A DNA stretch of 64,000 nt. It comes from a virus (taxonomy: Duplodnaviria > Caudoviricetes). This document shows positions 1,522-35,159 of this stretch, piece after piece; the stretch's first letter is position 1, and each line of letters starts with the position of its first letter. Under the pieces are notes generated by a model, which worked only from the letters and a program-made list of their open reading frames with translations, had not been told where the DNA came from and made no database searches. Location of the stretch: positions 1,593-65,592 of the IMG/VR virus record IMGVR_UViG_3300009181_000073, one strand, 5' to 3'. The translations under genes were made by a program, and so were the position numbers.

Positions 1522-1794
1522 TTATTGATCAATTATTTCTTGAACACGATGATACAACATGTTGGTGCCATATTGAATTCCAAAAACCGGCGTTAGAATA
1601 CGATAAAAAGGATAATCATTTGATTTGCCTTCAATGACTTCAATAACCATGATAATATCATTTTTATTGATACGATGTTCACCAGTTACTGGAGAAACTT
1701 TTGGAGATACGTTTACATCCAAGCTTTCAAAAACAAAAAAGAAATCTTTCAGCTGATAGAGCTTTCCAGGTTTTAGTCTTTTGTTTTTAGCCAT
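1522..1794 (-). CDS. GKLY-family small protein
   Basis: KPGKLYQL ... RILTPVFGIQYG. Confidence 0.7.
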   Translation of the reverse strand: MAKNKRLKPGKLYQLKDFFFVFESLDVNVSPKVSPVTGEHRINKNDIIMVIEVIEGKSNDYPFYRILTPVFGIQYGTNMLYHRVQEIIDQ

Positions 1795-1802
1795 TGTTTT
1801 AC

Positions 1803-1988
1803 TTATTCTTTACTGGATTTAAATCCAATAGCCCTGCTTTGTTTTACCACGGGCTTCTTGATATTAGAAGTCACTTTACCTTGTTGATTGAATCGGATAT
1901 TATAATCTCCGATGCTAACCTCGGATTCTTCTGTTTGGATTGTTAGGGTTTGTCCTGCTTTTTCCATGGTTAGCGTAATTTTATTCAT
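1803..1988 (-). CDS. hypothetical protein
   Basis: ORF downstream of TTGACT-N17-TATGAT. Confidence 0.55.
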   Translation of the reverse strand: MNKITLTMEKAGQTLTIQTEESEVSIGDYNIRFNQQGKVTSNIKKPVVKQSRAIGFKSSKE

Positions 1989-2008
1989 GTTTTATCGTAA
2001 ACCTCTTT

Positions 2009-2239
2009 CTATGTTTCTATCATACTGGAATCCTCGTTGGAAGTCAAATTTGGTGATTGCGGCTCAATTTTTTGTAGTCCAGTAGACCAATAACAAAAAA
2101 TCCTATCATCAATCTGTACAGCCCAATCATAAAAAGATTGCTTGCTTCGATCCTGAACTATTACCCCAATCTTATTGCGGCAACATCCATACAAAACCTT
2201 AACCGTATCTCCTACTTGCATCCCAATACCATATAACAA
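2009..2239 (-). CDS. small KOW/SH3-like hypothetical protein
   Basis: MQVGDTVKVLYG...GVIV pattern. Confidence 0.5.
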   Translation of the reverse strand: MLYGIGMQVGDTVKVLYGCCRNKIGVIVQDRSKQSFYDWAVQIDDRIFCYWSTGLQKIEPQSPNLTSNEDSSMIET

Positions 2240-2264
2240 TTTGACATATTATGTCAATTGCATT

Positions 2265-2615
2265 TCAACCGGAAGTAACATACCCCTCAACCGAATAAAA
2301 ACCACGAGCCTTTGAAATCTTATGCTTTGACATCTTAATGACATCCTCTAAGAAAGATAGAGAACACCTAACGCTCATGGCTTCAATATCACATTGTAAC
2401 GGCATCTTATGAAATCCTTGCAGAGATTCAGTGCAAACATATGAACCTGTATCGCAAATTCCAAAAGCCTTGCCACCACTGCAACTATCATTCACAAAAC
2501 AAATACCATAAAGATCAGGCCATTCATCACTCCTGTCAAGAATATCAGAAGGAATAATGTTGTAATCGTAATCATCAAACACAAATCCAGAAAACTGTAC
2601 CGTTCGCTCATGCAT
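2265..2615 (-). CDS. hypothetical protein
   Basis: 116-aa ORF in the gene run. Confidence 0.6.
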   Translation of the reverse strand: MHERTVQFSGFVFDDYDYNIIPSDILDRSDEWPDLYGICFVNDSCSGGKAFGICDTGSYVCTESLQGFHKMPLQCDIEAMSVRCSLSFLEDVIKMSKHKISKARGFYSVEGYVTSG

Positions 2616-2644
2616 AAATTACACCCAATACTGCTTGATTGTTT

Positions 2645-3286
2645 CTATTCAATCTGCTTCAATCCAGAGTATTTTATCCAATCAGGAATATTCCTGATAA
2701 CTCTGTCTCCAGCCAAAATATCGAATGTCTTTTCTTCGGAATTATCTTGAATGAAAAAGCCAAAACTGTCTTGAACGAAGTTTTTGTTTTTACCCTCTTT
2801 TTCTAAATAAAAACCAAAACCAATCTTGTTTAATTGAGCCAAACAACCGGGAATAATCCAAGAAACATCAGGCAAACCAATCGTATACTTTAGGTCTGCA
2901 CTCGTCAAGTCTGCACCACCGAGGTTTGCATCCTTGAGGTTCGCATCATGGAGGTCTGCACCCGTGAGGTTTGCACGATAGAGGATTGCACCCGTGAGGT
3001 TTGCACGATAGAGGATTGCACCCGTGAGGTTTGCATATCTGAGGTCTGCACCCTTGAGGTTCGCATCATAGAGGTCTGCACCCGTGAGGTTTGCACGATA
3101 GAGGTTTGCACCACGGAGGTTTGCATCACGGAGGTTTGCACCACGGAGGTTTGCACCTTGGAGGTTTGCACCACGGAGGTTTGCACCTTGGAGGTTTGCA
3201 CCTTGGAGGTTTGCACGTTGCCCTCCCTTTCCATCAAGCCAAAGTTTGTGCTGATCTAGAATCTTTTTTAGTTCAGATGCTTCCAT
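2645..3286 (-). CDS. pentapeptide repeat protein (paralog 1)
   Basis: A[ND]LxG repeats; N-cap ELKKILDQHKLW; conserved C-terminal WIIPGCL...KYSGLK domain. Confidence 0.95.
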   Translation of the reverse strand: MEASELKKILDQHKLWLDGKGGQRANLQGANLQGANLRGANLQGANLRGANLRDANLRGANLYRANLTGADLYDANLKGADLRYANLTGAILYRANLTGAILYRANLTGADLHDANLKDANLGGADLTSADLKYTIGLPDVSWIIPGCLAQLNKIGFGFYLEKEGKNKNFVQDSFGFFIQDNSEEKTFDILAGDRVIRNIPDWIKYSGLKQIE

Positions 3287-3293
3287 GTTTTAT

Positions 3294-3322
3294 ACTTTAG
3301 TTTGTTTGCGGCAAAAAGTCAA
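3294..3322 (-). promoter_or_regulatory. sigma70-type promoter, leaderless
   Basis: TTGACT-N17-TAAAGT, 7 nt before ATG 3286; -35 overlaps the upstream TGA. Confidence 0.7.
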
Positions 3323-3903
3323 ACCGATTCCGTTGCAACCTGCTTCAAACCAGAATACTTTACCCAATCAGGAATACCTCGAATAATTCTGTCTCCAAGG
3401 AGCATATCAAAAGTCTTTTCTATGGGATTGTCTTGAATAAAAAAACCAATGCTATCTTGAATGAAGTTTTCGTATTTTCCCTCTTTTTCTAGATAAAAAC
3501 CATAAGCAAACTGGTTTAACTGAACCAAGCAACCGGGAATAATCCATGAAACATGGGGCAAACCAATTGCACCCGTGAGGTTTGCATCTCTGAGGTTTGC
3601 ACCCGTGAGGTTTGCACCCGTGAGGTTTGCACCCGTGAGGTTTGCACCCGTGAGGTTTGCATCAAGGAGGTTTGCACCTTCGAGGTTTGCATCACGGAGG
3701 TCTGCACCACGGAGGCTTGCACCATGGAGGTCTGCACCACGGAGGTTTGCACCCGTGAGGTTTGCATCTCTGAGGTTTGCATCTCTGAGGTTTGCATCTC
3801 TGAGGTTTGCATCTCTGAGGTTTGCACGTTGCCCTTTCAACACATTGGTTTCAATCCAAAGCCGGTGCTGATCCAGAATCTCTTTTAGTTCAGATGCTTC
3901 CAT
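3319..3903 (-). CDS. pentapeptide repeat protein (paralog 2)
   Basis: [10 protein letters not shown] repeats; same N-cap and C-terminal domain. Confidence 0.95.
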
Positions 3904-3910
3904 GTTTTAT

Positions 3911-3939
3911 ACTTTAGTTTGTTTGCCGCAAAAAGTCAA
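3911..3939 (-). promoter_or_regulatory. sigma70-type promoter, leaderless
   Basis: Near-identical copy of 3294-3322; 7 nt before ATG 3903. Confidence 0.7.
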
Positions 3940-3946
3940 TAGATAT

Positions 3947-4204
3947 TCAATGCTCAATCAATTTAAATAATTGATTCACATTATGCCTAGATACTATCTT
4001 TCCAATAGTACCATCACAACTCAATATCTCTACATCATGCCTTATGCCATATTCATCTTCAACTATATCGTGTGATAACACCATAACACAGTTATCTGCA
4101 CGAATCAAATCGTAAAATATACTGTCACCACAAATTGTATGAGGAGTTGCTCCGTGATAGTAATTGTAAAGCTTACCAGAAAATAACCTACTCTGAAGCT
4201 TCAC
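3947..4204 (-). CDS. GKLY-family small protein
   Basis: FSGKLYNY ... EILSCDGTIGKI. Confidence 0.7.
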   Translation of the reverse strand: MKLQSRLFSGKLYNYYHGATPHTICGDSIFYDLIRADNCVMVLSHDIVEDEYGIRHDVEILSCDGTIGKIVSRHNVNQLFKLIEH

Positions 4205-4421
4205 GTTCTGCTTTTAATTGCTTGATAAGAGGTGCAGCTGTCTTGAGATTAGTGTAAAATACCGCAAGATATTCTGGATCTGTACCTATAATCTCCTCAA
4301 AGGAAATATTCTTCTCCCTTGTTATATCTTTCAAGGTACTAAGAACATATTCAAAATCATGATAATCCCTTGCAGTAAGGGAAAATGGAAACTGAATCTT
4401 TAACTCGTTTTTGTGTAGCAT
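4188..4421 (-). CDS. hypothetical protein
   Basis: ORF with GAGG RBS. Confidence 0.6.
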   Translation of the reverse strand: MLHKNELKIQFPFSLTARDYHDFEYVLSTLKDITREKNISFEEIIGTDPEYLAVFYTNLKTAAPLIKQLKAEREASE

Positions 4422-4434
4422 TGCTATGTTTCCT

Positions 4435-4701
4435 CTATTCCTTCAGAATCAATGTGGAACAATCAGGCATAAAGATGTATTCTACATTGCCATCTTTTGT
4501 TAGGATTTTCAATCTGTATTCGTCTTCAATGGGTGCAAAATCTGGATAAGTCCATTCTTCATATCCTAGCAGGACAAAAGACTCGTGTGAGTCTATTACA
4601 CAATATTGATCTTTTGAATTGATGTATTCAAAATCTATCCCTAGTTGATATAATTTTCCAATCTTAAGTTCCAATTGAATTGGCCTGCTCCCAAAAGTCA
4701 C
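4435..4701 (-). CDS. GKLY-family small protein
   Basis: LKIGKLYQL ... KILTKDGNVEYI; true start probably near 4674. Confidence 0.7.
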   Translation of the reverse strand: MTFGSRPIQLELKIGKLYQLGIDFEYINSKDQYCVIDSHESFVLLGYEEWTYPDFAPIEDEYRLKILTKDGNVEYIFMPDCSTLILKE

Positions 4702-4909
4702 TACAAATTATACACCAACCAACCATCCCTCTAGGAGTCAAAACTTTTACTTTGCCATTTTTAGTGCTTTTTTCAATCACCATAACTGTTTCTTTTTGGA
4801 AAACACTATCAATGCTTTCTTGCCCATCATCAAATTCATCATCTGCATAGATCATTTCAGAGGTATAACAAGAAATGTTTTTGTAAAGCTTTCCTACCAA
4901 AATGTCCAT
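4664..4909 (-). CDS. GKLY-family small protein
   Basis: LVGKLYKN ... KVLTPRGMVGWC. Confidence 0.75.
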   Translation of the reverse strand: MDILVGKLYKNISCYTSEMIYADDEFDDGQESIDSVFQKETVMVIEKSTKNGKVKVLTPRGMVGWCIICSDFWEQANSIGT

Positions 4910-4921
4910 GCAATTACTCCT

Positions 4922-5180
4922 GTGAACTACTCACAGGACAAGCCTGTGAGCTTCTAAAGAGTTTGTCTCTAGAACTTTAAGCACTTCACTGAAAATTACC
5001 GCTGTTAAACCAGTTGGTTTTATATTCTCTCCATGCTCGTAATCGTTCGTTCCGAACGATATCGGAAAAATTAATTAATCCGATAATTTTAATTATTATG
5101 CGAAATATGTTTTTTTTAAATGATTTAAAATGAATCGCATTCATCCCACAGGACGAGCCTGTGGGTTTTCTGCTCATGCA
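4922..5180 (-). mobile_element. non-autonomous IS200/IS605 mini-element (259 bp) retaining the omegaRNA region
   Basis: Left-end and right-end hairpins identical to those of the tnpB element at 44067-45423; TTTAT at 5181-5185; ends in TTCAC. Confidence 0.9.
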
Positions 5181-5188
5181 ATAAAAAT

Positions 5189-5217
5189 ACTATATCAGTA
5201 TAATATCTCAAAGTCAA
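5189..5217 (-). promoter_or_regulatory. sigma70-type promoter reading into the mini-element
   Basis: TTGACT-N17-TATAGT. Confidence 0.7.
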
Positions 5218-5223
5218 TAGTCT

Positions 5224-5472
5224 CTATTGTAGTTTTACAAACTGTCGAATATAGGCTTTGTGTATGTTGATGATACCAATAATGCCATTTGATATCAGTA
5301 CCTTGATTGTATAGAGATCAATAACAATATCTTTTTTCTTGAACGATAAAACCAAAAAAATATCTTGATGACTCAACAATCCATTGGTCCATTTGCCATC
5401 ATTATCATACAATGTCCAGCCTGTATCTTTTCCAGGCCATCGATATAATTTTCCTATCTCAAAACCATTCAT
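5224..5472 (-). CDS. GKLY-family small protein
   Basis: EIGKLYRW ... KVLISNGIIGII. Confidence 0.75.
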   Translation of the reverse strand: MNGFEIGKLYRWPGKDTGWTLYDNDGKWTNGLLSHQDIFLVLSFKKKDIVIDLYTIKVLISNGIIGIINIHKAYIRQFVKLQ

Positions 5473-5478
5473 TTTTAG

Positions 5479-5670
5479 CTATTTCGCTTTATTTTTTGTG
5501 AAATAAGAAATACCATAAAGAATTAATCCAGAAAAGATAAGAACACCATTTAGCACAGACCACCATGCTAGCTTCCACCACAAACGACTATAATATACGG
5601 CAGCAAATCCATAAATCACATTAGCCGCCATCCATAAATGATAGCTGATTTTCTGCAACTTTGTTTGCAT
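5479..5670 (-). CDS. small membrane protein
   Basis: Two hydrophobic segments. Confidence 0.6.
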   Translation of the reverse strand: MQTKLQKISYHLWMAANVIYGFAAVYYSRLWWKLAWWSVLNGVLIFSGLILYGISYFTKNKAK

Positions 5671-6089
5671 TATTTTGGTGCCTTCTTCTTCATGATAATA
5701 CGATTGCTTACTGGTGCAGCAGGTTCAGACTTTTTCTCTTCTACCGGCTTTGAATCAACTGCAACCTCAACAGGTGATTCAACAGGTTTTGGAGCCTCTA
5801 CAATGACAGCAGCTTCTGCTACCACTGCTTGTGTCTCGGTAACTTTGGAAGCCTCTACAGGAGCTTCCAGAGGCTTTGCGGCATAAGATTTGATAGACTG
5901 AAATAAACCGTATGAATTACATGCTTCAATTAGAAAAGTAGAAGCAATATAAGCAATAACACCGCTACTAACACCAATGATTAAAGGACGTACACCATTA
6001 AACAAAAAATGTAGTATAATGGCAATAATAACCGAAGTCAATGCCGTAATCGCTATCTGATAACTTGATTTAATAACACTTTTTTCCAT
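5670..6089 (-). CDS. membrane protein with acidic/Pro-rich tail
   Basis: Two TM segments then a low-complexity tail; AAGG RBS before ATG 6089. Confidence 0.65.
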   Translation of the reverse strand: MEKSVIKSSYQIAITALTSVIIAIILHFLFNGVRPLIIGVSSGVIAYIASTFLIEACNSYGLFQSIKSYAAKPLEAPVEASKVTETQAVVAEAAVIVEAPKPVESPVEVAVDSKPVEEKKSEPAAPVSNRIIMKKKAPK

Positions 6090-6292
6090 TTTATTTTCCT
6101 TTAGCAAGAACTATTCCTAGTTTTCTTCTTTGTAAATACCTGACTCTGCAAAAAACATTAGCAGACCCAGAAGAACACCAAATGGAACAAATCCAATCAG
6201 AATAATATTCGTAATCATTTTATTTTAAACCTTTTTAATAATGAGCGTTATCCGTGGTATGCGCTCCCCACCATCTAGTCAACCTAGTAAAA

Positions 6293-6526
6293 TCAGTGAA
6301 TGATCTTGTCGATGCTCTCAACGTGCTTTGGACGACCCCGTGAGGTCTTCAGCAGATGAGCAGATACCCGAACCTGAGTACCCTCCTCCGTGGAAACAGT
6401 CAGAGGTGCCACACAAGATACAAATACCTTGTCACCAGCCTTCAGGACAGGATCGTATCCTCCAAAACGAACATCCTCCAGAACAACCGCATGAACGCCA
6501 ACCTTGAGAGATGAAGAAGTAGTCAT
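6293..6526 (-). CDS. hypothetical protein with RGRPK (AT-hook-like) motif
   Basis: RBS and upstream TTGACA promoter. Confidence 0.6.
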   Translation of the reverse strand: MTTSSSLKVGVHAVVLEDVRFGGYDPVLKAGDKVFVSCVAPLTVSTEEGTQVRVSAHLLKTSRGRPKHVESIDKIIH

Positions 6527-6611
6527 TTTTTTGTTTTCCTTTTCTGTTTCGGGCCGTTGATGTATCTGTTTTACCAGCTTCCGTCGTCTTTGTCAACCAG
6601 TTCTTTTACTA

Positions 6612-6935
6612 TCAGTAGTATCGATCTTGCTCAGACCTTTCAACACATTCATCATGAAAATCCTCAATTAGCATATCATAAAGCTCTTCATCCGTTTTGC
6701 CGCTATATTCCAGTACGTCAGTGAAATCTAGAATAGGCCATTCACCATCATCCTTGTCCACAGCAAAAGCATGCGTAATAATAATTTCTGGATGAGAGAT
6801 ACGCTTATGAGAAGGATATAGCGGATAATTTACATGATATTCAATTTCGATTGAATATCCATCAACCACAAAAACCTTCTGATAGATATTGGCGTAGCTC
6901 TCTGGAGCATTACCGAAATTAATAAGTGAGTTCAT
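6612..6935 (-). CDS. hypothetical protein
   Basis: Acidic ORF with GGAG RBS. Confidence 0.6.
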   Translation of the reverse strand: MNSLINFGNAPESYANIYQKVFVVDGYSIEIEYHVNYPLYPSHKRISHPEIIITHAFAVDKDDGEWPILDFTDVLEYSGKTDEELYDMLIEDFHDECVERSEQDRYY

Positions 6936-7000
6936 TGTTATTCTCTCCCTTGATAGGATTGTTATAATAGAGTTTTCCAATATTAAGGTTTTTCATAAAA

Positions 7001-7261
7001 TTACTCCCACCAGCGATCTCCTTTAAAATAACTCACTTGGATCTCTGTAATCTTGCTGCCTTTATAATACCCCTTGTTGACTTTGAATCCATTGGATTCC
7101 AATAGCAACTCTCCTGATAAACGATTGTTGATTGTATCAAATTCCAGGTAAATCATAGATTTCGGGCCATATGTCTCGTTACTAAAATCTTTGTGGGTTT
7201 TAGGAACAATCGCCCCAGGAATATTCTTGACAACTTCAAATAATGCTTTTCTGGATTTCAT
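7001..7261 (-). CDS. hypothetical protein, leaderless
   Basis: TTGACT-N17-TAAGAT 6 nt before ATG. Confidence 0.65.
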   Translation of the reverse strand: MKSRKALFEVVKNIPGAIVPKTHKDFSNETYGPKSMIYLEFDTINNRLSGELLLESNGFKVNKGYYKGSKITEIQVSYFKGDRWWE

Positions 7262-7292
7262 CAGTGTATCTTATCGTTTTTGCGGCAAAAAG

Positions 7293-7832
7293 TCAAATTG
7301 GTTCTGCTGAAGTCTGTCTCAATCCAGAATACTTCACCCATTCAGGAATACCTCGAATAATCCTGTCTTCGACAAGCATGTCAAAAATCTTTTCTATGGC
7401 ATTGTCTTGAATAAAAAAGCCAAAACTGTCTTGAACGAAGTTTTCGTATTTTCTATCTTTCTCTAGATAAAAACCATAAGCAAACTGGTTTAACTGAGCT
7501 AAACAACCGGGAATAATCCAAGAAATATCTGGCAAACCAATTGCACATTTGAGGTTTGCACCTGCGAGGTTTGCACCAGTGAGGTTTGCACCAGTGAGGT
7601 TTGCACCTGCGAGGTTTGCACCTGCGAGGAATGCACCAGTGAGGTTTGCACCAGTGAGGTTTGCACCTGCGAGGTTTGCACCTGCGAGGAATGCACCAGT
7701 GAGGTTTGCACCAGTGAGGTTTGCACCGGAGAGGTTTGCATGGGTGAGGTCTGCACGGGTTCCTTGATTGCCTTTGGTTGAGAGCCAAAGCTTATGAGAA
7801 TCCAGAATATCTTTTAGTTTAGCTGCTTCCAT
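7293..7832 (-). CDS. pentapeptide repeat protein (paralog 3)
   Basis: [10 protein letters not shown] repeats with a 60-bp internal duplication; shared caps. Confidence 0.95.
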
Positions 7833-7880
7833 GAATCGAAGCTATCAAATCAAAAAATATACGTCAATAACAATAGCCAA

Positions 7881-8099
7881 TCAATTAATCTTTTGAATAT
7901 TACTAGGATGTATGTATACATAGCCAACCCTACCATCACCAACAAGAATTTTTAAACAATTATGCGGCAAAATCTCAATCAAACAAAAAATGTCATCTTC
8001 ATCAATAATTCCATTGTCGAAACCGTGAGCCACAATATCAAGCCACAAACAAATGTGGTCATACTCTTTAACTTGATATAATTTGCCAATCTCTAACAT
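7881..8099 (-). CDS. GKLY-family small protein
   Basis: EIGKLYQV ... KILVGDGRVGYV. Confidence 0.75.
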   Translation of the reverse strand: MLEIGKLYQVKEYDHICLWLDIVAHGFDNGIIDEDDIFCLIEILPHNCLKILVGDGRVGYVYIHPSNIQKIN

Positions 8100-8396
8100 T
8101 TACTCTCCTCCATTAACCAAAACAAATCTATCATCATACATGGGATGAACCATTATCGTTCCAATAATACCAGCAGATGTTAAAATATTAATACTATACA
8201 CAGTACCAACACAAGTCGGTGATGCCAAAATCATAAAAATCTCTTCTGCAAAAAGATAATATTGATTATTATCCCAATTATAATGCAAATCATCTGATTT
8301 TTCATGATCAATTGGATAAATAAAAAACCTATCCGGCTTACCATCTACTGTATAAACATGATGTGTACAAAGATTTCCTGGATTTAATGCAATCAT
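8100..8396 (-). CDS. GKLY-family small protein (divergent)
   Basis: NPGNLCT ... NILTSAGIIGTI. Confidence 0.65.
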   Translation of the reverse strand: MIALNPGNLCTHHVYTVDGKPDRFFIYPIDHEKSDDLHYNWDNNQYYLFAEEIFMILASPTCVGTVYSINILTSAGIIGTIMVHPMYDDRFVLVNGGE

Positions 8397-8677
8397 TTTT
8401 TTGCCTTAACAAGTTTTACCCTACCACTCTGGAAAAATATATAACCAACTATACCTTTGGCCGTCATCAACTTCAACCTTATTACATCAATACCCATCAT
8501 ATCTTTAACCGGAAAAGATTCCAAAATCATAAAAACATCACCCATGCCGATTTGATCAATTTTCTTAGAAAAGATATCATAAAAATCATCCTTGACAGCA
8601 ACACTCTTCGCTGGACTACTCTTCGCTAATTGATATAATCCTCCAGATATTAATCGTTTTTTAATGGGTTTAATCAT
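8393..8677 (-). CDS. GKLY-family small protein
   Basis: ISGGLYQL ... KLMTAKGIVGYI. Confidence 0.7.
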   Translation of the reverse strand: MIKPIKKRLISGGLYQLAKSSPAKSVAVKDDFYDIFSKKIDQIGMGDVFMILESFPVKDMMGIDVIRLKLMTAKGIVGYIFFQSGRVKLVKAKK

Positions 8678-8679
8678 GG

Positions 8680-8919
8680 CTATACCGCCTCGTGAATACA
8701 CGATCTGTGAACGTAAGTCCAACCAATAGAACCATCATCAGTCAAAATCTTCAACCTGATAGAGAATGGATCTTCAAAAGTATCCAATAAAAGAAATATA
8801 GAATTTCTATAAATTATTCCACATAAATCATTATTACGACTTCCGTCAGTCAAATACCATTTACTAGCAATTCCCTCCCCGTCAATTCTATAAAGCTTCC
8901 CTGGAATAATATCTAGCAT
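8680..8919 (-). CDS. GKLY-family small protein
   Basis: IPGKLYRI ... KILTDDGSIGWT. Confidence 0.75.
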   Translation of the reverse strand: MLDIIPGKLYRIDGEGIASKWYLTDGSRNNDLCGIIYRNSIFLLLDTFEDPFSIRLKILTDDGSIGWTYVHRSCIHEAV

Positions 8920-9233
8920 AATTTAAGCTCCTCTACCAATTCAAAGAATTCGTAATGTCCAGAAGAATATTTAAACCATCCAATAACCCCAGCATCAGTC
9001 AAAACTTTAATCCAATGTTCAAACTCATTAAATTCATTAACAGTAGCAATATCACTGAAAATTTCAAGAACCATAAAAGTATCATTCTCATACAACTTAT
9101 TGGTTTTTTCATCCAAATTGTTGATGCCAGCAAACAAAACCCACCACCATTCATCATATTCCATTGGCAAAGGATTGCGGCAAACATATAATTTACCTAC
9201 CTTAAATCCAGTTAAACTATTTCCGTTACTCAT
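8913..9233 (-). CDS. GKLY-family small protein
   Basis: KVGKLYVC ... KVLTDAGVIGWF. Confidence 0.75.
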   Translation of the reverse strand: MSNGNSLTGFKVGKLYVCRNPLPMEYDEWWWVLFAGINNLDEKTNKLYENDTFMVLEIFSDIATVNEFNEFEHWIKVLTDAGVIGWFKYSSGHYEFFELVEELKLC

Positions 9234-9976: not shown

Positions 9977-9977
9977 T

Positions 9978-10223: not shown

Positions 10224-10266
10224 CCAATGATGATATCATGAAATATTGCGGCTGTCAAAAGGATCA

Positions 10267-27128: not shown

Positions 27129-27139
27129 ATGATGATTAA

Positions 27140-27475: not shown

Positions 27476-27485
27476 ATATTACTTA

Positions 27486-27749: not shown

Positions 27750-27985
27750 TCAATAACCTCTTCAAAAAAATTAGTGTTTCGATCCCCACTATGAATAAAA
27801 CCAATAATTCCGTCCGTGGTTAAAATTCTCGTATCTTCCGTTAAAGACGACTTAGTATTATTAATAAACTCAATACACACAAATGGTTCATCTTCTTTCA
27901 ATAAACCAAGATGTTTGGAATACGTAGAGTCCTGCCAAATGTGATAAACATATTTTTTCGAAACATATAGTTTACCGGGAATCAT
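27746..27985 (-). CDS. GKLY-family small protein
   Basis: MIPGKLYVS ... RILTTDGIIGFI. Confidence 0.75.
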   Translation of the reverse strand: MIPGKLYVSKKYVYHIWQDSTYSKHLGLLKEDEPFVCIEFINNTKSSLTEDTRILTTDGIIGFIHSGDRNTNFFEEVIE

Positions 27986-28239
27986 TATTCCTTTACCTCT
28001 TTAAATAAATCGCCCTTATTAGAACGAATATATCCAATGTTTCCATTCGCATCTAATACCTTACAAAAACAATCAATGTTTTCAATAACCATGAAAACAG
28101 TAGTAAAATCTATATACATGAGAAGATTTGATAAATATTGTGGACTGCCATCGCCGAATGGTAGATTTGAAAATATAATATTTTCGAATAATGGGGTATT
28201 ATAAGTTACAGAACAATATAATTTACCTGGAATAATCAT
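27985..28239 (-). CDS. GKLY-family small protein
   Basis: IPGKLYCS ... KVLDANGNIGYI. Confidence 0.75.
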   Translation of the reverse strand: MIIPGKLYCSVTYNTPLFENIIFSNLPFGDGSPQYLSNLLMYIDFTTVFMVIENIDCFCKVLDANGNIGYIRSNKGDLFKEVKE

Positions 28240-28490
28240 TCCATTGCCTCTTTGAAACGAGCACTAAAACCATCGGTATAACGAATATATCCAATGTTTC
28301 CATCGGTATCTAATATTTTAGAAAAACCATAGAAGTTATCTTTCATGTTTTCAATAACCATGAAAACAGTTTCAGATCGCATATAGGAAAGAAAATCTGA
28401 CAGATAATGTTGACCTTCGTCGTATAATTCAATACTTCCCCATACTTCTGTACTGTAAGCCGAAGAACGATATAGCTTACCGGGAATCAT
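28236..28490 (-). CDS. GKLY-family small protein
   Basis: MIPGKLYRS ... KILDTDGNIGYI. Confidence 0.75.
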   Translation of the reverse strand: MIPGKLYRSSAYSTEVWGSIELYDEGQHYLSDFLSYMRSETVFMVIENMKDNFYGFSKILDTDGNIGYIRYTDGFSARFKEAME

Positions 28491-28744
28491 TATTCCCTTA
28501 CCTCTTTGAAAATAGCACTAAAATGATTGTTATGAATATATCCAATGTTTCCATCGGTATCTAATATTTTAGAAAAACCATAGAAGTTATAATTATCTTT
28601 CATGTTTTCAATAACCATGAAAACAGTTTCAGGTGGCATATACATAAGAAAATCTAACAGATAGTGTTTACCTTCGTAATTTTCAATTCTTCCCCATATC
28701 TCTGTATTATAAACCGGAGAACAATATAATTTACCGGGAATCAT
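28490..28744 (-). CDS. GKLY-family small protein
   Basis: MIPGKLYCS ... KILDTDGNIGYI. Confidence 0.75.
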   Translation of the reverse strand: MIPGKLYCSPVYNTEIWGRIENYEGKHYLLDFLMYMPPETVFMVIENMKDNYNFYGFSKILDTDGNIGYIHNNHFSAIFKEVRE

Positions 28745-29130
28745 TAACCCCACCGAATAATATCATCTGGATTAGATACGCTTGCGGCAAGCTGTAGGAG
28801 CCTCTCCAGTCGAGCAGAAACATAGCCCTCATCTCTGCCGCAATAATAAATTTGAGCGCCCTGAAGGCCCCTCTCCATGCTTGGAGCAATGGATTCATTC
28901 GTGGTGTTGCTCGTATTGTTCAAACGAATAATAGTGCGGCGAACCAAAACAGACAAATCCTTGGCGCTAATCTCTCCGTAAAGCTCGCCGTCAACATCAC
29001 AAAGACCCAATACCAAAAGAATATCCCGAGCATTGCTGTTGCTTACATTAAGTTCAGGACAACCCCCAGTAACATTGTAATCTTCATCATACTGAACAGG
29101 ATTCTTAGGATCATAAAATGTAACACTCAT
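28744..29130 (-). CDS. hypothetical protein
   Basis: ORF behind TTGACT-N17-TAGATT. Confidence 0.65.
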   Translation of the reverse strand: MSVTFYDPKNPVQYDEDYNVTGGCPELNVSNSNARDILLVLGLCDVDGELYGEISAKDLSVLVRRTIIRLNNTSNTTNESIAPSMERGLQGAQIYYCGRDEGYVSARLERLLQLAASVSNPDDIIRWG

Positions 29131-29283
29131 AGTCAAACTAATCTACACCATCCAATCCAGTAAGTCAAACAATATCTATGTAATGGAAGACAACCAATAG
29201 AAGAAGGCCAATAGAACATAGTTGTCTTTGTTGTTGACTTATCTGTCACAAAAGAGTAGATTCACAAAAGAGGAAATAAAAAC

Positions 29284-29427
29284 ATGTCTAAAGGTAGTGA
29301 TCCATTTGATGCTCTAATTGGCCTAGTACGTATTTGGCTTTGGGTTCCAATTATTTTGTTCATGATCAAATTTATCTTTTGGTCAACCGTTTTTATTGGC
29401 ATTTATGCTTGGATTTGTTCACTCTGA
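29284..29427 (+). CDS. small membrane protein (47 aa, not in the ORF track)
   Basis: MSKGSDPFDALIGLVRIWLWVPIILF...; GAGG RBS; TTGACT-N17-TAGATT promoter. Confidence 0.6.
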   Translation: MSKGSDPFDALIGLVRIWLWVPIILFMIKFIFWSTVFIGIYAWICSL

Positions 29428-29441
29428 TTTCTGGAGGAATT

Positions 29442-29660
29442 ATGAAAAATACTATTGAGAATGATGTATTCGTGGTCATGGAAGGTGCAAAAATCGGTGG
29501 AGTATATCGTTGGCGTGATGATGCCAATGTTCATGCCCAAGCTGTCGGAGGTACTGTTGTTGTTCAAGGTATCAAAAACAAAATCCCAGGTTGGGTAGAA
29601 ACAATGGTCGCTTCCGCAAAAGAAAAAGCCCAAATGCAAAACTCTGTGGTACGCCGATGA
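29442..29660 (+). CDS. hypothetical protein
   Basis: GGAGG RBS before MKNTIEND. Confidence 0.65.
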   Translation: MKNTIENDVFVVMEGAKIGGVYRWRDDANVHAQAVGGTVVVQGIKNKIPGWVETMVASAKEKAQMQNSVVRR

Positions 29661-30124
29661 ATGATGATACAAAAATTGGAATCCCATCAAAGCAAGCAGC
29701 AATGATGCTATCTCAACTTGCTGATATGGACTATGATCAAGTTGGAATCATTCATGATCTTGGACTCGGTATTGCTTCTACAATGGAAACAATTGCAGCA
29801 ACTATAGAAAATCCACCAAAGAAAATCAAAAAAGGTTGCCAAGTAATTCAATTGGGAAGCCAACTGTTTGTACCAATCAGAGATCTTAAAAAATCTTTGG
29901 AAGATGGTGAATTGGATTTGGAATCATACTTGCGTAAACTAAATGCAATCACAGATGATCTTTGTGAGATTACAGAAAAAAATCATGCAGTTATGGCAAA
30001 TCCAAATATACGAAATCATATGAAACGATTAGCAAATACAATCGTTATCGGCGTTGAGGCTGGATCTATTCTGAATACTATGTTTGGAATTATTGATAGC
30101 GAAGATTTGATTCATTCTGATTAG
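29657..30124 (+). CDS. hypothetical protein
   Basis: ATGA-coupled start MNDDTKIG. Confidence 0.65.
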   Translation: MNDDTKIGIPSKQAAMMLSQLADMDYDQVGIIHDLGLGIASTMETIAATIENPPKKIKKGCQVIQLGSQLFVPIRDLKKSLEDGELDLESYLRKLNAITDDLCEITEKNHAVMANPNIRNHMKRLANTIVIGVEAGSILNTMFGIIDSEDLIHSD

Positions 30125-31604
30125 GATGTAGAATATCCTTTGAGTCTGCTTTCTTTTTAGTTTCTGATGGTTTAAGATTATCCATAGACCAATAAGATTT
30201 AAATCCTGGATGATTTGGTGAATCGTATATAAAACATGATTTTGGTTTTATATGTTTTATATACCAATAAGATCCATAATTTTCCCAACTCATTTTTTCA
30301 TCAAATAATTTTTCCAAATGCTCTTTCAGTTGGATTGTTGAATACCCAATTAAAGACTGCCATTTTGCTTTGGATTTCAGTAGATTATCATTTTTTAATG
30401 ATTCTCGCACAGCATGGCTCATACATTTTCCTAATCGAAAATGTATGTCTGTTTTGCTTTTTTCCCTTTCAGCCTTATTTCGTTTAGCACGAACTTCTGG
30501 ATTGGATAAATATTCCTTCTGCCGAAGCATAACTTTATCTTTATTTAACTTATAATGGTTTCTTTGTCTTACTAATTCTTTATCTTTATTTTTCTCTCTA
30601 TATACCTTGTTTTGTAATTTTATCTTTTCTGCATTTCTCTGCCCGTGTTTTATTCTCACGTTTCGAACATGCTCTTTATTTTTAGGATTTGATATATAAC
30701 GAGCGAATGCAATCGCATGGACGCATTTTTTACAATTTACGCTTTTTTTATTATCTCTTTTCAAAAGGAAATCTATTCCACATGTTTTACATTTTCTTTC
30801 AAGGGACGGAACAAGACCATGTTTCTCCTTATACCTTTTCATGATCATTGATTTAATACATTCCTTGCAGTTTATATTTTTTGAGTCATTCCGGCGAATA
30901 TTGTATTTTGAACCACAGTTTTGACATATGCGCTCTATACAAACATTGGTCTTACCACGTGTCTCATCCAATATATTAATCATCTTCTTACGAAACTCTG
31001 GATCTTGCCAACGATTCTTCAATCTCTCGGATGCCAAAATACTTGCTTCTGATTCTGCAAGACTTTCTATTTGATTTTTACGATATGTTGGATCTTTCCA
31101 ACATGCCTGCTGTGCTTTACTCTGTTTCTCTCTAACTGAGTCCGATGACATTATTTCATGCATTTTCTGCCGATAGCTATGATTGCCCCAGCGTTCCTTG
31201 CTTTGCTTTGATAAGAACTGTTTAGTCTCTTCTGGAGTCATTGAAAAACATGAACGCTCTTTGGCTTCGGTCTTTTGTTTGAAGTTATAGCATTGACCTT
31301 GCTTGTCGTAATATTGTGCTATCCACCACTCTTCCCTATGATTTCTCTGTTCCTTTGATGAGTCTTCCATAACCTCAAGGATATAGAATTCAATGAAGTC
31401 ATCATGTCCAAGCTCTTCCTTGCACTTGGCAAAGTCATTTCTAAGAAATCGATTGCAATGCTTACCGTTCAGCAAAGATCTAACATGATCACGCCAACGA
31501 GATTTGAACTGTTTGGCTTGTCCGATGTAGATCCGATTATTATGAGTGTTTAGGATTTTGTAAATCCCAGGCTTGAGTAAATTTTCTTCGTCATGTAGCT
31601 TCAT
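30090..31604 (-). CDS. GIY-YIG homing endonuclease with degenerate C-terminal HNH-like domain
   Basis: GIYKILN...IYIGQA...RW..H; C-terminus parallels that of the HNH at 10267-11076. Confidence 0.8.
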   Translation of the reverse strand: MKLHDEENLLKPGIYKILNTHNNRIYIGQAKQFKSRWRDHVRSLLNGKHCNRFLRNDFAKCKEELGHDDFIEFYILEVMEDSSKEQRNHREEWWIAQYYDKQGQCYNFKQKTEAKERSCFSMTPEETKQFLSKQSKERWGNHSYRQKMHEIMSSDSVREKQSKAQQACWKDPTYRKNQIESLAESEASILASERLKNRWQDPEFRKKMINILDETRGKTNVCIERICQNCGSKYNIRRNDSKNINCKECIKSMIMKRYKEKHGLVPSLERKCKTCGIDFLLKRDNKKSVNCKKCVHAIAFARYISNPKNKEHVRNVRIKHGQRNAEKIKLQNKVYREKNKDKELVRQRNHYKLNKDKVMLRQKEYLSNPEVRAKRNKAEREKSKTDIHFRLGKCMSHAVRESLKNDNLLKSKAKWQSLIGYSTIQLKEHLEKLFDEKMSWENYGSYWYIKHIKPKSCFIYDSPNHPGFKSYWSMDNLKPSETKKKADSKDILHPNQNESNLRYQ

Positions 31605-31640
31605 ATCAATACGTATGAAGCAGAGGGAGGTTTGTATCCG

Positions 31641-32057
31641 TCAGCCCAGTCCCGCATATGTTAGAATATTAACATATGCATTACTACCAGTATAATAAGG
31701 GTCACTGGCACTCCATGGATATGAGCCAGTCAAAGTAGGAATGCTTGCTGTTGGAATTCCTGTCAATCCTGCCGCTACACAAAATGTAGATCCAGTAACC
31801 CACATTTCTTTCACACGAAAATCAAAAGTAACACTTTGTCCGCTGGCAACAGTGTATTTATTGGTTCCAACAAGACCATTTGCTGTAAAGGCAAATGTTG
31901 TTGCTCCACCTGTTGCTCCAATGGTTATATCTTTGGTTACATATGGGAATTCTATTTTAACAGCAGTACCAGCAGCAGCAGTGCTGCTTGTAAGAAATGG
32001 TAATCCCGAAGTCTGATAAGCTGGGACGAAGTTATAACCGGGTGGTGGGTATTGCAT
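31641..32057 (-). CDS. hypothetical protein, possibly structural (Thr/Gly/Ala-rich)
   Basis: Beta-rich composition. Confidence 0.6.
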   Translation of the reverse strand: MQYPPPGYNFVPAYQTSGLPFLTSSTAAAGTAVKIEFPYVTKDITIGATGGATTFAFTANGLVGTNKYTVASGQSVTFDFRVKEMWVTGSTFCVAAGLTGIPTASIPTLTGSYPWSASDPYYTGSNAYVNILTYAGLG

Positions 32058-32120
32058 ATTATTTTTTCCTTTTGACTATTTAGTCAATAACTATTAATCA
32101 GAATAGAAAAGGGGATTTAT

Positions 32121-32621
32121 ATGAAAGAAATTAATATTGAAGAATGTCTGGAAGAGTGTATTAAACACTATGGTGATAGTGAATATGCACCACTAGCTGT
32201 TTTTCTTGGCATGACCGAAGCTTTACAGATGATGCTGCACAGCCATCATTGGGAGACCCAAGGGCCTACGTACTTTGCTGATCACCAATTGTTTCAGCGT
32301 CTATATACAGCAATGGATGCACAGATTGATCAGCTGGGTGAAAGGGTAGTAGGACTATCCAAGGAACCAAAACTTGTTAATTATTTTTCTCGTATGAAGG
32401 TTAAGCAGAAATTCCTTGAGACATGTACTACACCAGATCCATATATGGTGGTAAGTCTTGCCGCAGAAAAAGCTTATGTTCATATTGGTGAAAAGCTAAT
32501 GGATAGATTGAAAGAAGCTGGTCTTCTTTCTAGAGGTCTAGAACAAATGCTTGGTAATATTCTAGATGTACATGAAACACACGTTTATCTACTAGATCAA
32601 AGAACCAAAGGTATGCTTTAA
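32121..32621 (+). CDS. dps: Dps/ferritin-like protein
   Basis: HHWETQGPTYFADHQLFQRLY...DQLGER ferroxidase pattern. Confidence 0.85.
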   Translation: MKEINIEECLEECIKHYGDSEYAPLAVFLGMTEALQMMLHSHHWETQGPTYFADHQLFQRLYTAMDAQIDQLGERVVGLSKEPKLVNYFSRMKVKQKFLETCTTPDPYMVVSLAAEKAYVHIGEKLMDRLKEAGLLSRGLEQMLGNILDVHETHVYLLDQRTKGML

Positions 32622-33082
32622 GCCTTCATTTCTTCTTCTACCGGCTCTTTCGAGCTTTCATCTTTTACTTCCTCATCTTTTACTGAATGATCCACGATCG
32701 TAAACTTAACCTTTTTGGTAGATTTAATCCCAAATGGTTTCCCTTTGCGATAAAGGATTTCAGCAAACCCAGAGCCAACAGCCATTGTAAGGTCTTCTGG
32801 AGAAATTTTAACCTCCTGCTTTGTCATAGCATTAATTGCCGACAAACAATCTGCTTCTAGTGCCGTAACCTTATATTGAGAATGTTCCAGCCCTACAATA
32901 TCATCAATCTTTACTTTCTTTAGCCAATCTTTGTTCATCTCTAGATCAGGAATAGACTTACCAGAAGCCATGAATTTCATGATGCCATTGAGATGATCAC
33001 GGCATTGTCGTCCTGGATAAAGATATTCATTTGGATGATTCTTGACTTTTACTGTGATGGTCTTTGTTTCTGTTTTTGCCAT
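32618..33082 (-). CDS. hypothetical protein
   Basis: 154-aa ORF. Confidence 0.65.
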   Translation of the reverse strand: MAKTETKTITVKVKNHPNEYLYPGRQCRDHLNGIMKFMASGKSIPDLEMNKDWLKKVKIDDIVGLEHSQYKVTALEADCLSAINAMTKQEVKISPEDLTMAVGSGFAEILYRKGKPFGIKSTKKVKFTIVDHSVKDEEVKDESSKEPVEEEMKA

Positions 33083-33249
33083 TTTATTTGTTTTTCTTTA
33101 ATAGAGAACGAATTTTTGTTTTAAAACTTGATAGAACTAGTATAGAGTTTTCTACTAATGAATGCAAGTCTAATTGAAGATAGAATCTACAACAGAGCAA
33201 ACAAATAAAATAAAAAATTATTTTAATTATTCGCATTGCTTCGATAGTC

Positions 33250-33462
33250 TCAGTCTTCGGTTTGAGCAGCAGGAGGGGTTGTAACTGGGACTTCATCTGA
33301 TTCCTCATATGAGGAGAAGAAATCATCCGATGGCCTTTGAGGCTTTATATTGCGCTGTTGAGAACGAGACACGTGGCGTTCCACATCTTTTTCAGATAGA
33401 CGCTTCTTTGTAAAGCGTTCAAAACCACCAGCATACTTGTTGTTTTTTCCTACCTTAGCCAT
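33250..33462 (-). CDS. small basic hypothetical protein
   Basis: AAGGA RBS. Confidence 0.55.
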   Translation of the reverse strand: MAKVGKNNKYAGGFERFTKKRLSEKDVERHVSRSQQRNIKPQRPSDDFFSSYEESDEVPVTTPPAAQTED

Positions 33463-33547
33463 CTTGTTTATCCTTGTTTCCTTTTCGTTGTTGTGGACTG
33501 ATCAATCAGTCTTGATATAGAGACTATATGTTAGTTGCCGCCGAATG

Positions 33548-33787
33548 TCAATCGCTACTTACAAGAATCATTTCATGGGGTTTCATCAATATTTCTCCAG
33601 AATAACCTTCTGAATTTAAAATGCCAAAGATATTGTATTCCTCATAAGGTGCTTTTCTGACAGATAATAGCATTAAAACTTCTTCACCCGTAACAGCAAG
33701 TGGAGTGTGGTTAGTAGTCATTGCTGCAAGTATAATCGGAGAGCCTGATAGAAGTTGGATTTTGTATAGTTTACCTATATGGAACAT
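33548..33787 (-). CDS. GKLY-family small protein
   Basis: HIGKLYKI ... GILNSEGYSGEI. Confidence 0.7.
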   Translation of the reverse strand: MFHIGKLYKIQLLSGSPIILAAMTTNHTPLAVTGEEVLMLLSVRKAPYEEYNIFGILNSEGYSGEILMKPHEMILVSSD

Positions 33788-34083
33788 TAGTTTAATGTAG
33801 CTGGAATACAAATCCCATAGCGAATCAAGGATTCTATAAATGATTCTTCATCATGAAAATTTACATGCAATGTGTTTTGTGCATTTAATGCCTTTGACAC
33901 TGATTCCATGAATTCTTGATTGTTTTTAAATGGCACCTTTTCAGCTGATCTAAGGGCTTCAACAAAATTTTCTGGCGTATTAAAAATAAAAATCTCACGT
34001 TCATGTGTGGTTTCTCCAATTAATACAACAGGTTGTCCAGCCTTAAACATTTTGATACTTTTCTGATTGGAATCTTTCTTCAT
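33787..34083 (-). CDS. hypothetical protein
   Basis: ORF in the gene run. Confidence 0.6.
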   Translation of the reverse strand: MKKDSNQKSIKMFKAGQPVVLIGETTHEREIFIFNTPENFVEALRSAEKVPFKNNQEFMESVSKALNAQNTLHVNFHDEESFIESLIRYGICIPATLN

Positions 34084-34087
34084 GTTT

Positions 34088-34273
34088 TTATTTCTGTTTT
34101 GATTCAAAGCTTTTTAGCCGAAAGTCTGGAATACTCTCATACTCTTTTGTCAACATATCATACACAACAAATTGTTTCAATCCTTTATCAACATCACAAA
34201 CAATGCCGTGAACATTCTTTCGATGTGTAAACTGAAACTTATATTCTTTGCCAATCCTTAGTGTTTCTAGCAT
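34088..34273 (-). CDS. small beta-barrel-like hypothetical protein
   Basis: LRIGKEYKF; possibly a distant GKLY relative. Confidence 0.5.
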   Translation of the reverse strand: MLETLRIGKEYKFQFTHRKNVHGIVCDVDKGLKQFVVYDMLTKEYESIPDFRLKSFESKQK

Positions 34274-34296
34274 AATTATTTTCTTTTAGATTATTG

Positions 34297-34545
34297 TTAA
34301 AGCATTTTTATTTCTTTTGGATATAAATACGATATGGTGCCAACCTGACCGGAAGGAAATAGTGCAGTAATCTTACAGTATTTACCATTACATTCAATAC
34401 CTAGCATTAGAAAAACAGTTTCTTTGCTTGGGAATGTTACAGATTTATCATTTATAACCGCTCCAAAGTCATCATCGAATATATTAAACACAATCTGATA
34501 TAGTTTACCAATAGGAAACTTTTGTTTTATCTCTTCGGTTGTCAT
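34297..34545 (-). CDS. GKLY-family small protein
   Basis: FPIGKLYQI ... TALFPSGQVGTI. Confidence 0.7.
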   Translation of the reverse strand: MTTEEIKQKFPIGKLYQIVFNIFDDDFGAVINDKSVTFPSKETVFLMLGIECNGKYCKITALFPSGQVGTISYLYPKEIKML

Positions 34546-34596
34546 TGGTTCTTTCTACTAGTGTTATCAGATCGTTTTTCCTATTTATAAAGCATT

Positions 34597-34869
34597 TTAT
34601 TGAATTAATTTCAAATTATGTTCATCAAACAAAAATATCTCGCAACATTCTCCAGTGGAAAGTAAAGCAGTTATCTTAACATACCCTATACAATCATCGC
34701 ATGCATTTATATCAAGCAAAAGAAAAAAATCTTCATTGCATTTAAATGCACGATAATTATCATTTACATATGCTTCAAAAAAATTTGAAGCATTTCCAAA
34801 ATTAATTTGATATAGTTTACCAATAGGAAACTTTTGTTTTAGCTCTTTATTTGCCATTGATGTATTCAC
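34597..34869 (-). CDS. GKLY-family small protein
   Basis: FPIGKLYQI ... TALLSTGE. Confidence 0.7.
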   Translation of the reverse strand: MNTSMANKELKQKFPIGKLYQINFGNASNFFEAYVNDNYRAFKCNEDFFLLLDINACDDCIGYVKITALLSTGECCEIFLFDEHNLKLIQ

Positions 34870-34892
34870 TCTTACGATAATAATTGGATTTT

Positions 34893-35159
34893 TTATCGTT
34901 CAACTAATTCCATATCACCTGGACAAATCGCATATACCAAAAATAATTTTCCATCGCTCGCCAATACTGTGGCTTCTGTTTGACAAATTTCTTCTGGGTC
35001 ATGTGAAGAAGCATAATATACACTGGTTTCAATTAACATGAACAGTTCGTTTGTGAATTGCCAAGCCTTCAAACTGTGAATGTCATAGAACAAATGATTG
35101 GATTTTACTTTGTATATTTTACCTACAACGAAAAGATCCCGATAATCACCATTCTTCAT
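34893..35159 (-). CDS. GKLY-family small protein
   Basis: VVGKIYKV ... TVLASDGK. Confidence 0.65.
   Translation of the reverse strand: MKNGDYRDLFVVGKIYKVKSNHLFYDIHSLKAWQFTNELFMLIETSVYYASSHDPEEICQTEATVLASDGKLFLVYAICPGDMELVER

Follow-up and report, generated by a model that had tools for sequence, protein, structure and literature searches.

Why should a phage keep tens of copies of one small gene, the products of which agree at their ends and in little between? The question is raised by a stretch of 64,000 nucleotides (the window), bases 1593-65592 of the 65,592-base IMG/VR record IMGVR_UViG_3300009181_000073, which is a fragment of an uncultivated freshwater jumbo phage; CheckV estimates the record to be about 24% complete, implying a genome near 270 kb. 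One small fold, encoded by 47 minus-strand genes with a recurrent GKLY motif near the N-terminus, fills roughly a third of a 34-kb portion of this sequence. The evidence supports well the conclusion that these genes constitute an unnamed, divergent family of free-standing SH3b-like proteins, which has expanded through tandem duplication in a clade of freshwater jumbo phages.

The pattern GK[LIM]Y was found in 44 minus-strand open reading frames (ORFs) below 35.2 kb, 41 of which were used to build a hidden Markov model (HMM). Searching all 802 six-frame ORFs of at least 35 amino acids (aa) in the window with this HMM, using the --max option, identified 47 ORFs at E < 1e-5; these are confined to the minus strand and to positions 1522-35186, and the top plus-strand ORF was at E 0.0064. 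An independent profile search of the whole record returned 48 matches, namely the 46 intact genes, the C-terminal part of a split gene and a weak plus-strand match. The count of 47 genes, one of them interrupted, reported by a first-pass annotation of this sequence is therefore exact, and its size range of 70-115 aa accommodates all 46 intact genes (72-115 aa). The 'longer relative' that it had placed at 55333 is not retained, as the match is limited to the last 27 residues (HMM E 0.0064; hhalign probability 44% over 27 columns). The terminal motifs had been drawn too narrowly: the proposed N-terminal pattern, [ILM]x[IPV]GKLY, fits only 26 of the 46 intact members, whereas exact GKLY is found in 38 and GK[LIM]Y in 41, and the strict C-terminal pattern, K[IV]L[TS]xxGx[IV]G[WY], fits only 16, as against 36 in a relaxed form. 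The segments between these anchors are highly divergent, as had been described, with paralogues being 44% identical in core columns and 11% in variable columns; pairwise identity between paralogues has a median of 22% and a maximum of 76%.

The arrangement in coupled arrays was likewise confirmed. Of 45 consecutive family pairs, 32 are no more than 60 nucleotides (nt) apart, with 19 overlapping (mostly by 4 nt) and seven having gaps of 0-10 nt, a spacing that fits operons with coupled translation. The 47 copies lie within 33.7 kb, and hence more than 30 tandem copies of a single family are present in this phage genome. The suggestion that the genes often follow sigma70 promoters fared less well: there are 98 promoter-like sites in positions 1-20000, a modest excess over the 75.6 +/- 8.8 of shuffled sequences, and 70 in positions 20001-36500, which is not above chance (67.5 +/- 7.9 in shuffles). 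Part of the promoter-like matches within genes stems from the coding motif L-T (TTGACN). Good promoter-like sites are nevertheless located upstream of operon starts at 10258-10230 (the nine-gene array), 26385-26357 (the ligase gene heading the ten-gene array) and 36234-36206 (the MnmA gene heading a three-gene group).

The fixed ends and variable middles become intelligible when the proteins are modelled. Using a 46-row alignment, AlphaFold2 predicted an all-beta structure of seven strands for a short member (24190-24447; predicted local distance difference test score, pLDDT, 90.9), and the same strands with two helices inserted in the RT loop for a long-form member (17408-17728; pLDDT 90.9). 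The top match to both models in a wide VIA-align search was the SH3b domain of the Nostoc NlpC/P60 endopeptidase 2evr (Z scores of 7.4 and 7.3, over 68-70 residues), followed by SH3b domains of endolysin, lysostaphin and NlpC/P60 proteins and by canonical SH3 domains; the lists returned by Foldseek from the PDB and BFVD are nearly all SH3 or SH3b. Among PDB sequences, the family profile aligns strand for strand with the SH3 domain of Pex13 (1jqq/1n5z; E 0.0059-0.008), the GKLY strand falling where canonical SH3 domains have their 'ALYDY' strand. The sole recurrent Pfam family is SH3_3 (PF08239), matched by ten of the 46 members at E <= 1, with a best value of 3.6e-5. The SH3-like fold that had been proposed from the C-terminal pattern is hence predicted for both the short and the long form.

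Mapping conservation onto the model assigns G7-K8-L9-Y10 to strand a, positions 39-44 to strand b, K55-I-L57 to strand c, G61 to the distal turn and I63-G-W-I66 to strand d; the high-entropy positions are those of the RT hairpin (11-36), the n-Src loop (45-54) and the tail from 67 onward. In agreement with the Pex13 alignment, the conserved ends correspond to barrel strands and the divergent middles to loops, so that each protein is predicted to be a small SH3/SH3b-type barrel with strands a-e and RT, n-Src and distal loops. It is the RT and n-Src loops that border the groove for the ligand in SH3 and SH3b domains. As the variable stretches are these groove-framing loops, the family is most likely to be a repertoire of binding modules.

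The identity of the closest folds suggests one alternative ligand, as free SH3b modules might bind the cell wall during lysis or adsorption. The top structural matches are indeed SH3b domains of peptidoglycan hydrolases and endolysins, SH3_3 is the only weak Pfam match to recur, and Drexlerviridae have a stand-alone SH3 gene beside the lysis cassette, according to the part of the report available (PMC13164509). However, neither a signal peptide nor a hydrophobic N-terminus was found in any of the 46 members (a 19-aa Kyte-Doolittle window reaches at least 1.6 in only three), no endolysin or holin was found near the arrays among the annotated large ORFs of the window, and 47 divergent copies are hard to square with a single wall ligand. 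This makes wall binding an improbable function for the family.

SH3-like barrels often bind nucleic acids, and the members could alternatively be small barrels of the Sso7d, Tudor or KOW kind, acting as regulators, chromatin proteins or acidic DNA mimics. Helicase SH3, Tudor and NusG KOW domains all appear in the fold lists, with Z scores of 5.5-6.5, and 11 of the 46 members are basic (isoelectric point, pI, of at least 7.5). By contrast, the pI of the family as a whole extends from 4.35 to 10 with a median of 5.5, 22 of the 46 members being below that value, and net charge ranges from -11 to +10, such that there is no common electrostatic character; the hypervariable loops also speak against one shared type of ligand. 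A nucleic acid-binding role is thus considered to be about as improbable as attachment to the cell wall.

The family appears to have escaped annotation altogether. No member reaches a cut-off in a Pfam scan of all 46, none matches any PHROGs family, and the two that were tried by tblastn had no match in 50,697 GenBank phage records; the family is also undescribed in the literature searched, a search to which the supplementary family lists of Iyer 2021 and of the jumbo-phage surveys did not belong. The earlier impression that this is not a recognised named family consequently stands, and its absence from Pfam and PHROGs renders it invisible to annotation pipelines at present. The database relatives are all labelled 'hypothetical protein' and lack Pfam domains, and the nearest ESM Atlas clusters are unnamed viral proteins. 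Against 1.84 billion proteins, the family profile retrieved 844 representative clusters at E <= 1e-3; among the best 150 of these, 142 are shorter than 200 aa, with a GKLY-like motif near the N-terminus in 119 of those. The few long database matches were matched through repeated stretches, five to nine per protein, and none of 5,255 candidates scored as a fused or longer form, which is weak evidence. Two relatives depart from the usual architecture (P0062 and P0086), one being a protein of 194 aa with two matched stretches that looks like a tandem fusion and the other one of 140 aa with a Cys-rich C-terminal tail.

Related loci were sought with a tighter alignment of 11 sequences. Two IMG/VR jumbo contigs contain comparable numbers of copies, with 29 family matches in G006 (122,895 bases, 33% complete) and 39 in G007 (260,466 bases, 70% complete), and the arrays of both adjoin ligase and MnmA homologues, as in the window. 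All 18 of the metagenome loci found by motif pattern carry arrays, amounting to 158 members in 123 kb, every one of them co-oriented. Single proteins used as queries (P0048 and P0004) found no IMG/VR relative. No family member was detected by profile in five IMG/VR contigs related through DNA ligase (45-53% identity), or by HMM in six ligase loci. The nearest isolate as judged by the helicase, Microcystis phage Mel-JY01, is just 36% identical, and neither it nor two uncultured phages of about 485 kb contain a family member by profile, the same method being positive in G006 and G007.

Within the window, the seven closest paralogue pairs are all neighbours in a single array, six of them being directly adjacent, and for 41 of the 46 members the closest match is another gene of the window and not one from G006 or G007, a distribution that fits local tandem duplication in each lineage. 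Counterparts in metagenomes at 50-96% identity are available for 34 of the 46 members, the core being 90% identical and the variable parts 78%. Two metagenome loci, L035 and L019, are syntenic with the window across 4.5-25.5 kb at 83-99% DNA identity, and the 23 orthologue pairs drawn from these comparisons have an omega (ratio of non-synonymous to synonymous substitution rates) of 0.23 in the core and 0.46 in the variable parts. Each paralogue is under purifying selection between related phages. Young paralogue pairs have omega values of 0-0.46 in the core and 0.27-1.0 in the variable parts. Gene content nevertheless turns over: 19 of the 41 members of L035 and L019 have no window partner of at least 50% identity, and L019, in the position syntenic to the ten-gene array, has five extra members and one replaced member.

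This combination bears on the possibility that the arrays are filler, generated by tandem duplication after an increase in capsid size, with the copies having little or no individual function and drifting. Tandem duplication has been proposed as a route to jumbo genomes, as set out in the part of Hua 2017 available (PMC5646251), and both the loop omega of about 1 in the two youngest paralogue pairs and the fast turnover of gene content between strains would be in keeping with such drift. Yet 46 of 48 motif-initiated loci are intact ORFs, 44 of which start with ATG, the omega values between orthologues are 0.23 (core) and 0.46 (loops), and the arrays occupy syntenic places in relatives sharing only 67-70% DNA identity. 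It is accordingly very unlikely that the genes are filler.

The fixed ends and variable middles also look like those of cassettes for programmed variation, whether silent copies that recombine into an expression site or the targets of a diversity-generating retroelement. However, each gene is complete with start and stop codons, overlaps between adjacent copies are common, the motifs are conserved as protein with varied synonymous codons such that there are no DNA homology tracts, and no reverse transcriptase (RVT_1) is present in the 65.6-kb record, which is about 24% of the genome. The synonymous variation of the GKLY codons themselves indicates a constraint on the protein rather than on a DNA repeat, and of all the explanations weighed here programmed variation is the one to which almost no credence can be given.

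The site at which the proteins act can be considered through the company that their genes keep. The window encodes replication and nucleotide metabolism functions (an ATP-dependent DNA ligase, a DnaB-type helicase, both ribonucleotide reductase subunits and a 5'-3' exonuclease), together with GIY-YIG and DUF559 endonucleases, a ParB-like protein, a KaiC/RecA-like ATPase, an MnmA-like tRNA thiouridylase and tRNA genes; the neighbours of the arrays are ligase, MnmA, receiver-domain, ATPase and homing endonuclease genes. The small size and high copy number of the family would be compatible with internal virion proteins that are packaged or injected, having diversified to meet the host on entry, and no observation contradicts such a role. 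As the arrays are set among replication and nucleotide metabolism genes, sharing operons with ligase and MnmA, and no structural genes were found among the annotated ORFs of the window, a place in the virion is slightly less probable than binding to nucleic acids or the cell wall. The proteins are soluble and appear cytoplasmic. The lack of export signals, and the sharing of operons with DNA ligase, tRNA modification, receiver-domain and pentapeptide-repeat genes, mean that action inside the cell is most likely.

The function best accommodating these observations, and one given about an even chance, is that the members form a repertoire of binding modules that work within the cell, in taking over the host or in countering its defences. 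The first-pass annotation had likewise read the family as small binding scaffolds with variable loops, for instance early host-takeover or anti-defence effectors; of that reading, the SH3-like fold, the placing of the variable segments in loops and the lack of a family name are supported. A fixed barrel core would carry variable RT and n-Src loops, the RT loop of the long subfamily holding an inserted helical hairpin, and each member would have its own target; the proteins would act inside the infected cell, on host proteins, with whole genes being gained, lost or replaced between strains while each copy that is kept would stay constrained. A binding repertoire would be expected to combine a constant scaffold with variable loops on the ligand-facing side, to show purifying selection on each copy and to turn over its copies rapidly, and this is the pattern that the family displays. 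The Nip protein of phage phi3T provides a precedent for SH3-like domains in counter-defence, judging from the accessible portion of its description (PMC11984713). It is conceivable, though this more specific proposal can only be advanced tentatively, that the family is a germline-encoded library of dozens of SH3-like binders in which each paralogue neutralises or redirects a different host protein, such as a component of a defence system, and that turnover tracks the defences of local hosts.

Several results weigh against a repertoire of intracellular binders built on this fold. Foldseek found no match at E <= 0.001 in either the PDB or BFVD, all of the fold matches have Z scores below 8, values which are common for small barrels, and fold searches alone are not proof. 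None of eight members scanned singly attained the SH3_3 cut-off of 27 bits, the best reaching 14.3 bits, and member 1 scored 13.5 bits in the scan of all 46. The PxxP contacts of canonical SH3 domains are made by a Trp in strand c and by the Pro and Tyr of the 3-10 turn. These residues are not conserved in the family: the column before K55 is variable, with I the most frequent residue at 22%, there is no conserved P or Y after strand d, and only Y10 and W65 are conserved of the aromatic candidates, so that a canonical peptide-binding SH3 domain is not what is found. The best structural matches are to SH3b domains that bind cell walls rather than to intracellular ones. An omega below 1 in the loops constitutes no direct sign of an arms race. 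Finally, parts of several members are represented, at 95-100% identity, in the contigs of two metatranscriptome studies of freshwater, but this evidence of expression comes from two RNA libraries in which carried-over DNA is possible; the contigs cover only parts of positions 16000-30000, and the parts left uncovered carry no meaning.

Giant eukaryotic viruses are noted for their large expansions of paralogues, which have rarely been documented in phages. A library of SH3-like binders, if it exists, would be to phages what the expanded ankyrin, BTB and F-box families are to giant viruses, and would offer small binding scaffolds from a natural source. Should the members bind host proteins, many testable pairs of interacting phage and host proteins would be available from one scaffold, and the family would bear on how and why jumbo genomes grow.

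Two members have been disrupted (Table 1). The split member contains a transposon-derived insert of about 262 bp (approximately 14874-15135), and its orthologue in the closely related locus L035 is uninterrupted, with both parts of the window gene aligning to adjacent positions. The insert ends in hairpins that match those at the ends of a TnpB-encoding (IS605 OrfB) element at about 44061-45424, which has two ORF-less derivatives with its terminal hairpins in the window, one being this insert and the other lying between two members at about 4922-5214; both are absent from L035. The second disrupted member is a remnant that stops just after GKLYY, the rest having been replaced by an unrelated ORF of 122 aa (6612-6980). 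L035 retains an intact member in this place, with 21 of its first 23 residues identical to the remnant, and positions 6612-6996 represent a gene replacement with its junction at the conserved GKLYY motif. The closest relative of the TnpB protein (85% identity over 416 aa) is encoded by a 30-kb contig (L037) of a metagenome-assembled genome (MAG) labelled Candidatus Saccharibacteria, in which no family members were found; the contig may be a mis-binned phage contig, or the mobile element may be shared. An attempt to infer the host through TnpB failed, as the MAG with the closest copy has no family member and the remaining matches are spread over many phyla.

Other features of the window were also recorded. 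Interspersed with the SH3-like arrays is a second paralogue family, of pentapeptide-repeat proteins whose genes have a 15-nt period, and similar DNA adjoins the arrays of metagenome loci L020, L031 and L035. The divergent DUF2201 and ATPase genes mark the switch point from minus-strand to plus-strand genes. The gene for tRNA-Ile(UAU), at 22158-22441 on the minus strand, was overlooked by a default tRNA scan; its anticodon loop is broken by a 210-nt group I intron that was detected by ARAGORN in intron mode and that matches Rfam Intron_gpI at 33.8 bits (E 4.8e-7), under the gathering score. A 485-kb uncultured phage, LR745208.1, contains a segment with 81% identity to this stretch.

Table 1. 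Positions of family members, arrays and other features in the window
Feature	Position	Strand	Details
Single member, 90 aa	1522-1794	-	HMM E 9.8e-14
Single member, 85 aa, GTG start	3947-4204	-	HMM E 2.9e-14
Two members	4435-4909 (4435-4674, 4664-4909)	-	HMM E 8.9e-13, 2.5e-20; orthologues in L035
Single member, 82 aa	5224-5472	-	HMM E 9e-19
5' remnant, 25 aa	6919-6996	-	HMM E 0.13
Nine-member array	7881-10223	-	HMM E 2.1e-9 to 5.6e-23; gaps -11 to +2 nt
Nine-member array, genes 1-5	7881-8099, 8100-8396, 8393-8677, 8680-8919, 8913-9233	-	
Nine-member array, genes 6-9	9226-9501, 9498-9740, 9737-9976, 9978-10223	-	
Three-member array	12086-12837 (12086-12331, 12335-12580, 12580-12837)	-	HMM E 3e-13 to 2.5e-20
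Single member, 80 aa	14414-14656	-	HMM E 1.4e-19
Split member	14653-15239 (N-terminal part 15136-15239, C-terminal part 14653-14873)	-	HMM E 7.8e-7 (C-terminal part), 0.054 (N-terminal part)
Three members	15681-16463 (15681-15968, 15961-16191, 16215-16463)	-	HMM E 1.2e-7, 4.2e-14, 2.6e-15
Four long-form members, 91-115 aa	16723-18003 (16723-17070, 17073-17405, 17408-17728, 17728-18003)	-	HMM E 3e-18 to 2.4e-20
Single member, 100 aa	18072-18374	-	HMM E 2.5e-15
Ten-member array	22597-25171	-	HMM E 2.7e-13 to 2.7e-21; directly downstream of DNA ligase gene
Ten-member array, genes 1-5	22597-22854, 22856-23137, 23157-23417, 23414-23671, 23668-23958	-	
Ten-member array, genes 6-10	23955-24197, 24190-24447, 24469-24729, 24726-24950, 24947-25171	-	
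Six-member array	27140-28744	-	HMM E 1.9e-9 to 2.7e-20; holds youngest pair (76% identity)
Six-member array, genes	27140-27472, 27486-27749, 27746-27985, 27985-28239, 28236-28490, 28490-28744	-	
Single member, 79 aa	33548-33787	-	HMM E 2.7e-13
Three members downstream of MnmA-like gene	34297-35159 (34297-34545, 34597-34857, 34893-35159)	-	HMM E 6.3e-12, 1.7e-13, 1.6e-10
152-aa protein, weak C-terminal resemblance	55333-55791	+	HMM E 0.0064; not counted as member
MnmA-like gene	35156-36205		MnmA domains found
cREC_REC-domain protein (cyclic-phosphate processing receiver), 121 aa	15287-15652	-	E 3e-14; within array region
DUF2201 metallopeptidase/VWA protein	51697-53016	-	Divergent partner of ATPase gene
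ATPase (PHROG 1297)	53406-54692	+	Divergent partner of DUF2201 gene
Pentapeptide-repeat genes	2645-3286, 3319-3903, 7293-7832, 13621-14373; also 63382-63999		Pfam for two; rest by DNA repeat families D1, D2
IS605-family element	about 44061-45424		416-aa TnpB gene at 44164-45414 (+); interrupts GIY-YIG endonuclease gene (45365-45700 and 43216-44157)

The first-pass annotation regarded an expansion of this size in one phage as unusual, which holds, but there is precedent: phage G has about 35 copies of a zinc-ribbon gene, according to the portion of Iyer 2021 available (PMC7824862), and arrays of more than 30 genes are described for phages G and 121Q in the parts consulted of three reports (PMC7824862, PMC5646251, PMC13282480). 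These too are jumbo-phage tandem arrays of small genes, very large and specific to a lineage. The copies in phages G and 121Q are, in the passages available, 'very similar' and of another fold, whereas the median identity in the window family is 22%, with a maximum of 76%, around a conserved core and hypervariable loops, and its expansion recurs across the clade. With 47 genes, the family ranks with the largest gene expansions so far seen in phages.

The bacterial SH3b/SH3_3 domains (the N-terminal domain of 2evr, the SH3b domain of lysostaphin and the phiSM101 endolysin) are the best fold matches, with Z scores of 6.5-7.4, and a reading of the alignments indicates that they share with the family a hydrophobic strand, a strand of [KR]-[IV]-L type and G-x-x-G-[WY]. 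Unlike them, the family is free-standing, having neither a catalytic partner domain nor an export signal, falls under the SH3_3 cut-off, and has an N-terminal G-K-L-Y strand, a hypervariable RT loop and tens of copies per genome. The eukaryotic SH3 domain of Pex13 (1jqq/1n5z) is the best sequence-profile match among solved structures, at E 0.006; in contrast to it, the family is phage-encoded and the PxxP-binding residues are not conserved.

Two other phage proteins invite comparison. The stand-alone SH3 protein of the T1-like Drexlerviridae (DUF7244) is also a free, small phage SH3 protein, but it is single-copy, encoded beside the lysis cassette and proposed to be a lysis helper in the available part of its report (PMC13164509), unlike the window family; DUF7244 had no match in the Pfam scan of the 46 members, the presence of its model in the library being unverified. 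Nip of Bacillus phage phi3T, a counter-defence protein with predicted SH3-like domains, can be likened to the family by description only; as far as the accessible text goes (PMC11984713), it differs in being a single-copy protein of 279 aa, in which two SH3-like domains accompany an HU-like dimerisation domain. Set beside these systems, the family is new in its fold, in its extreme divergence around a fixed scaffold, in reaching 47 copies within about one quarter of a genome, and in the way its expansion recurs across a clade.

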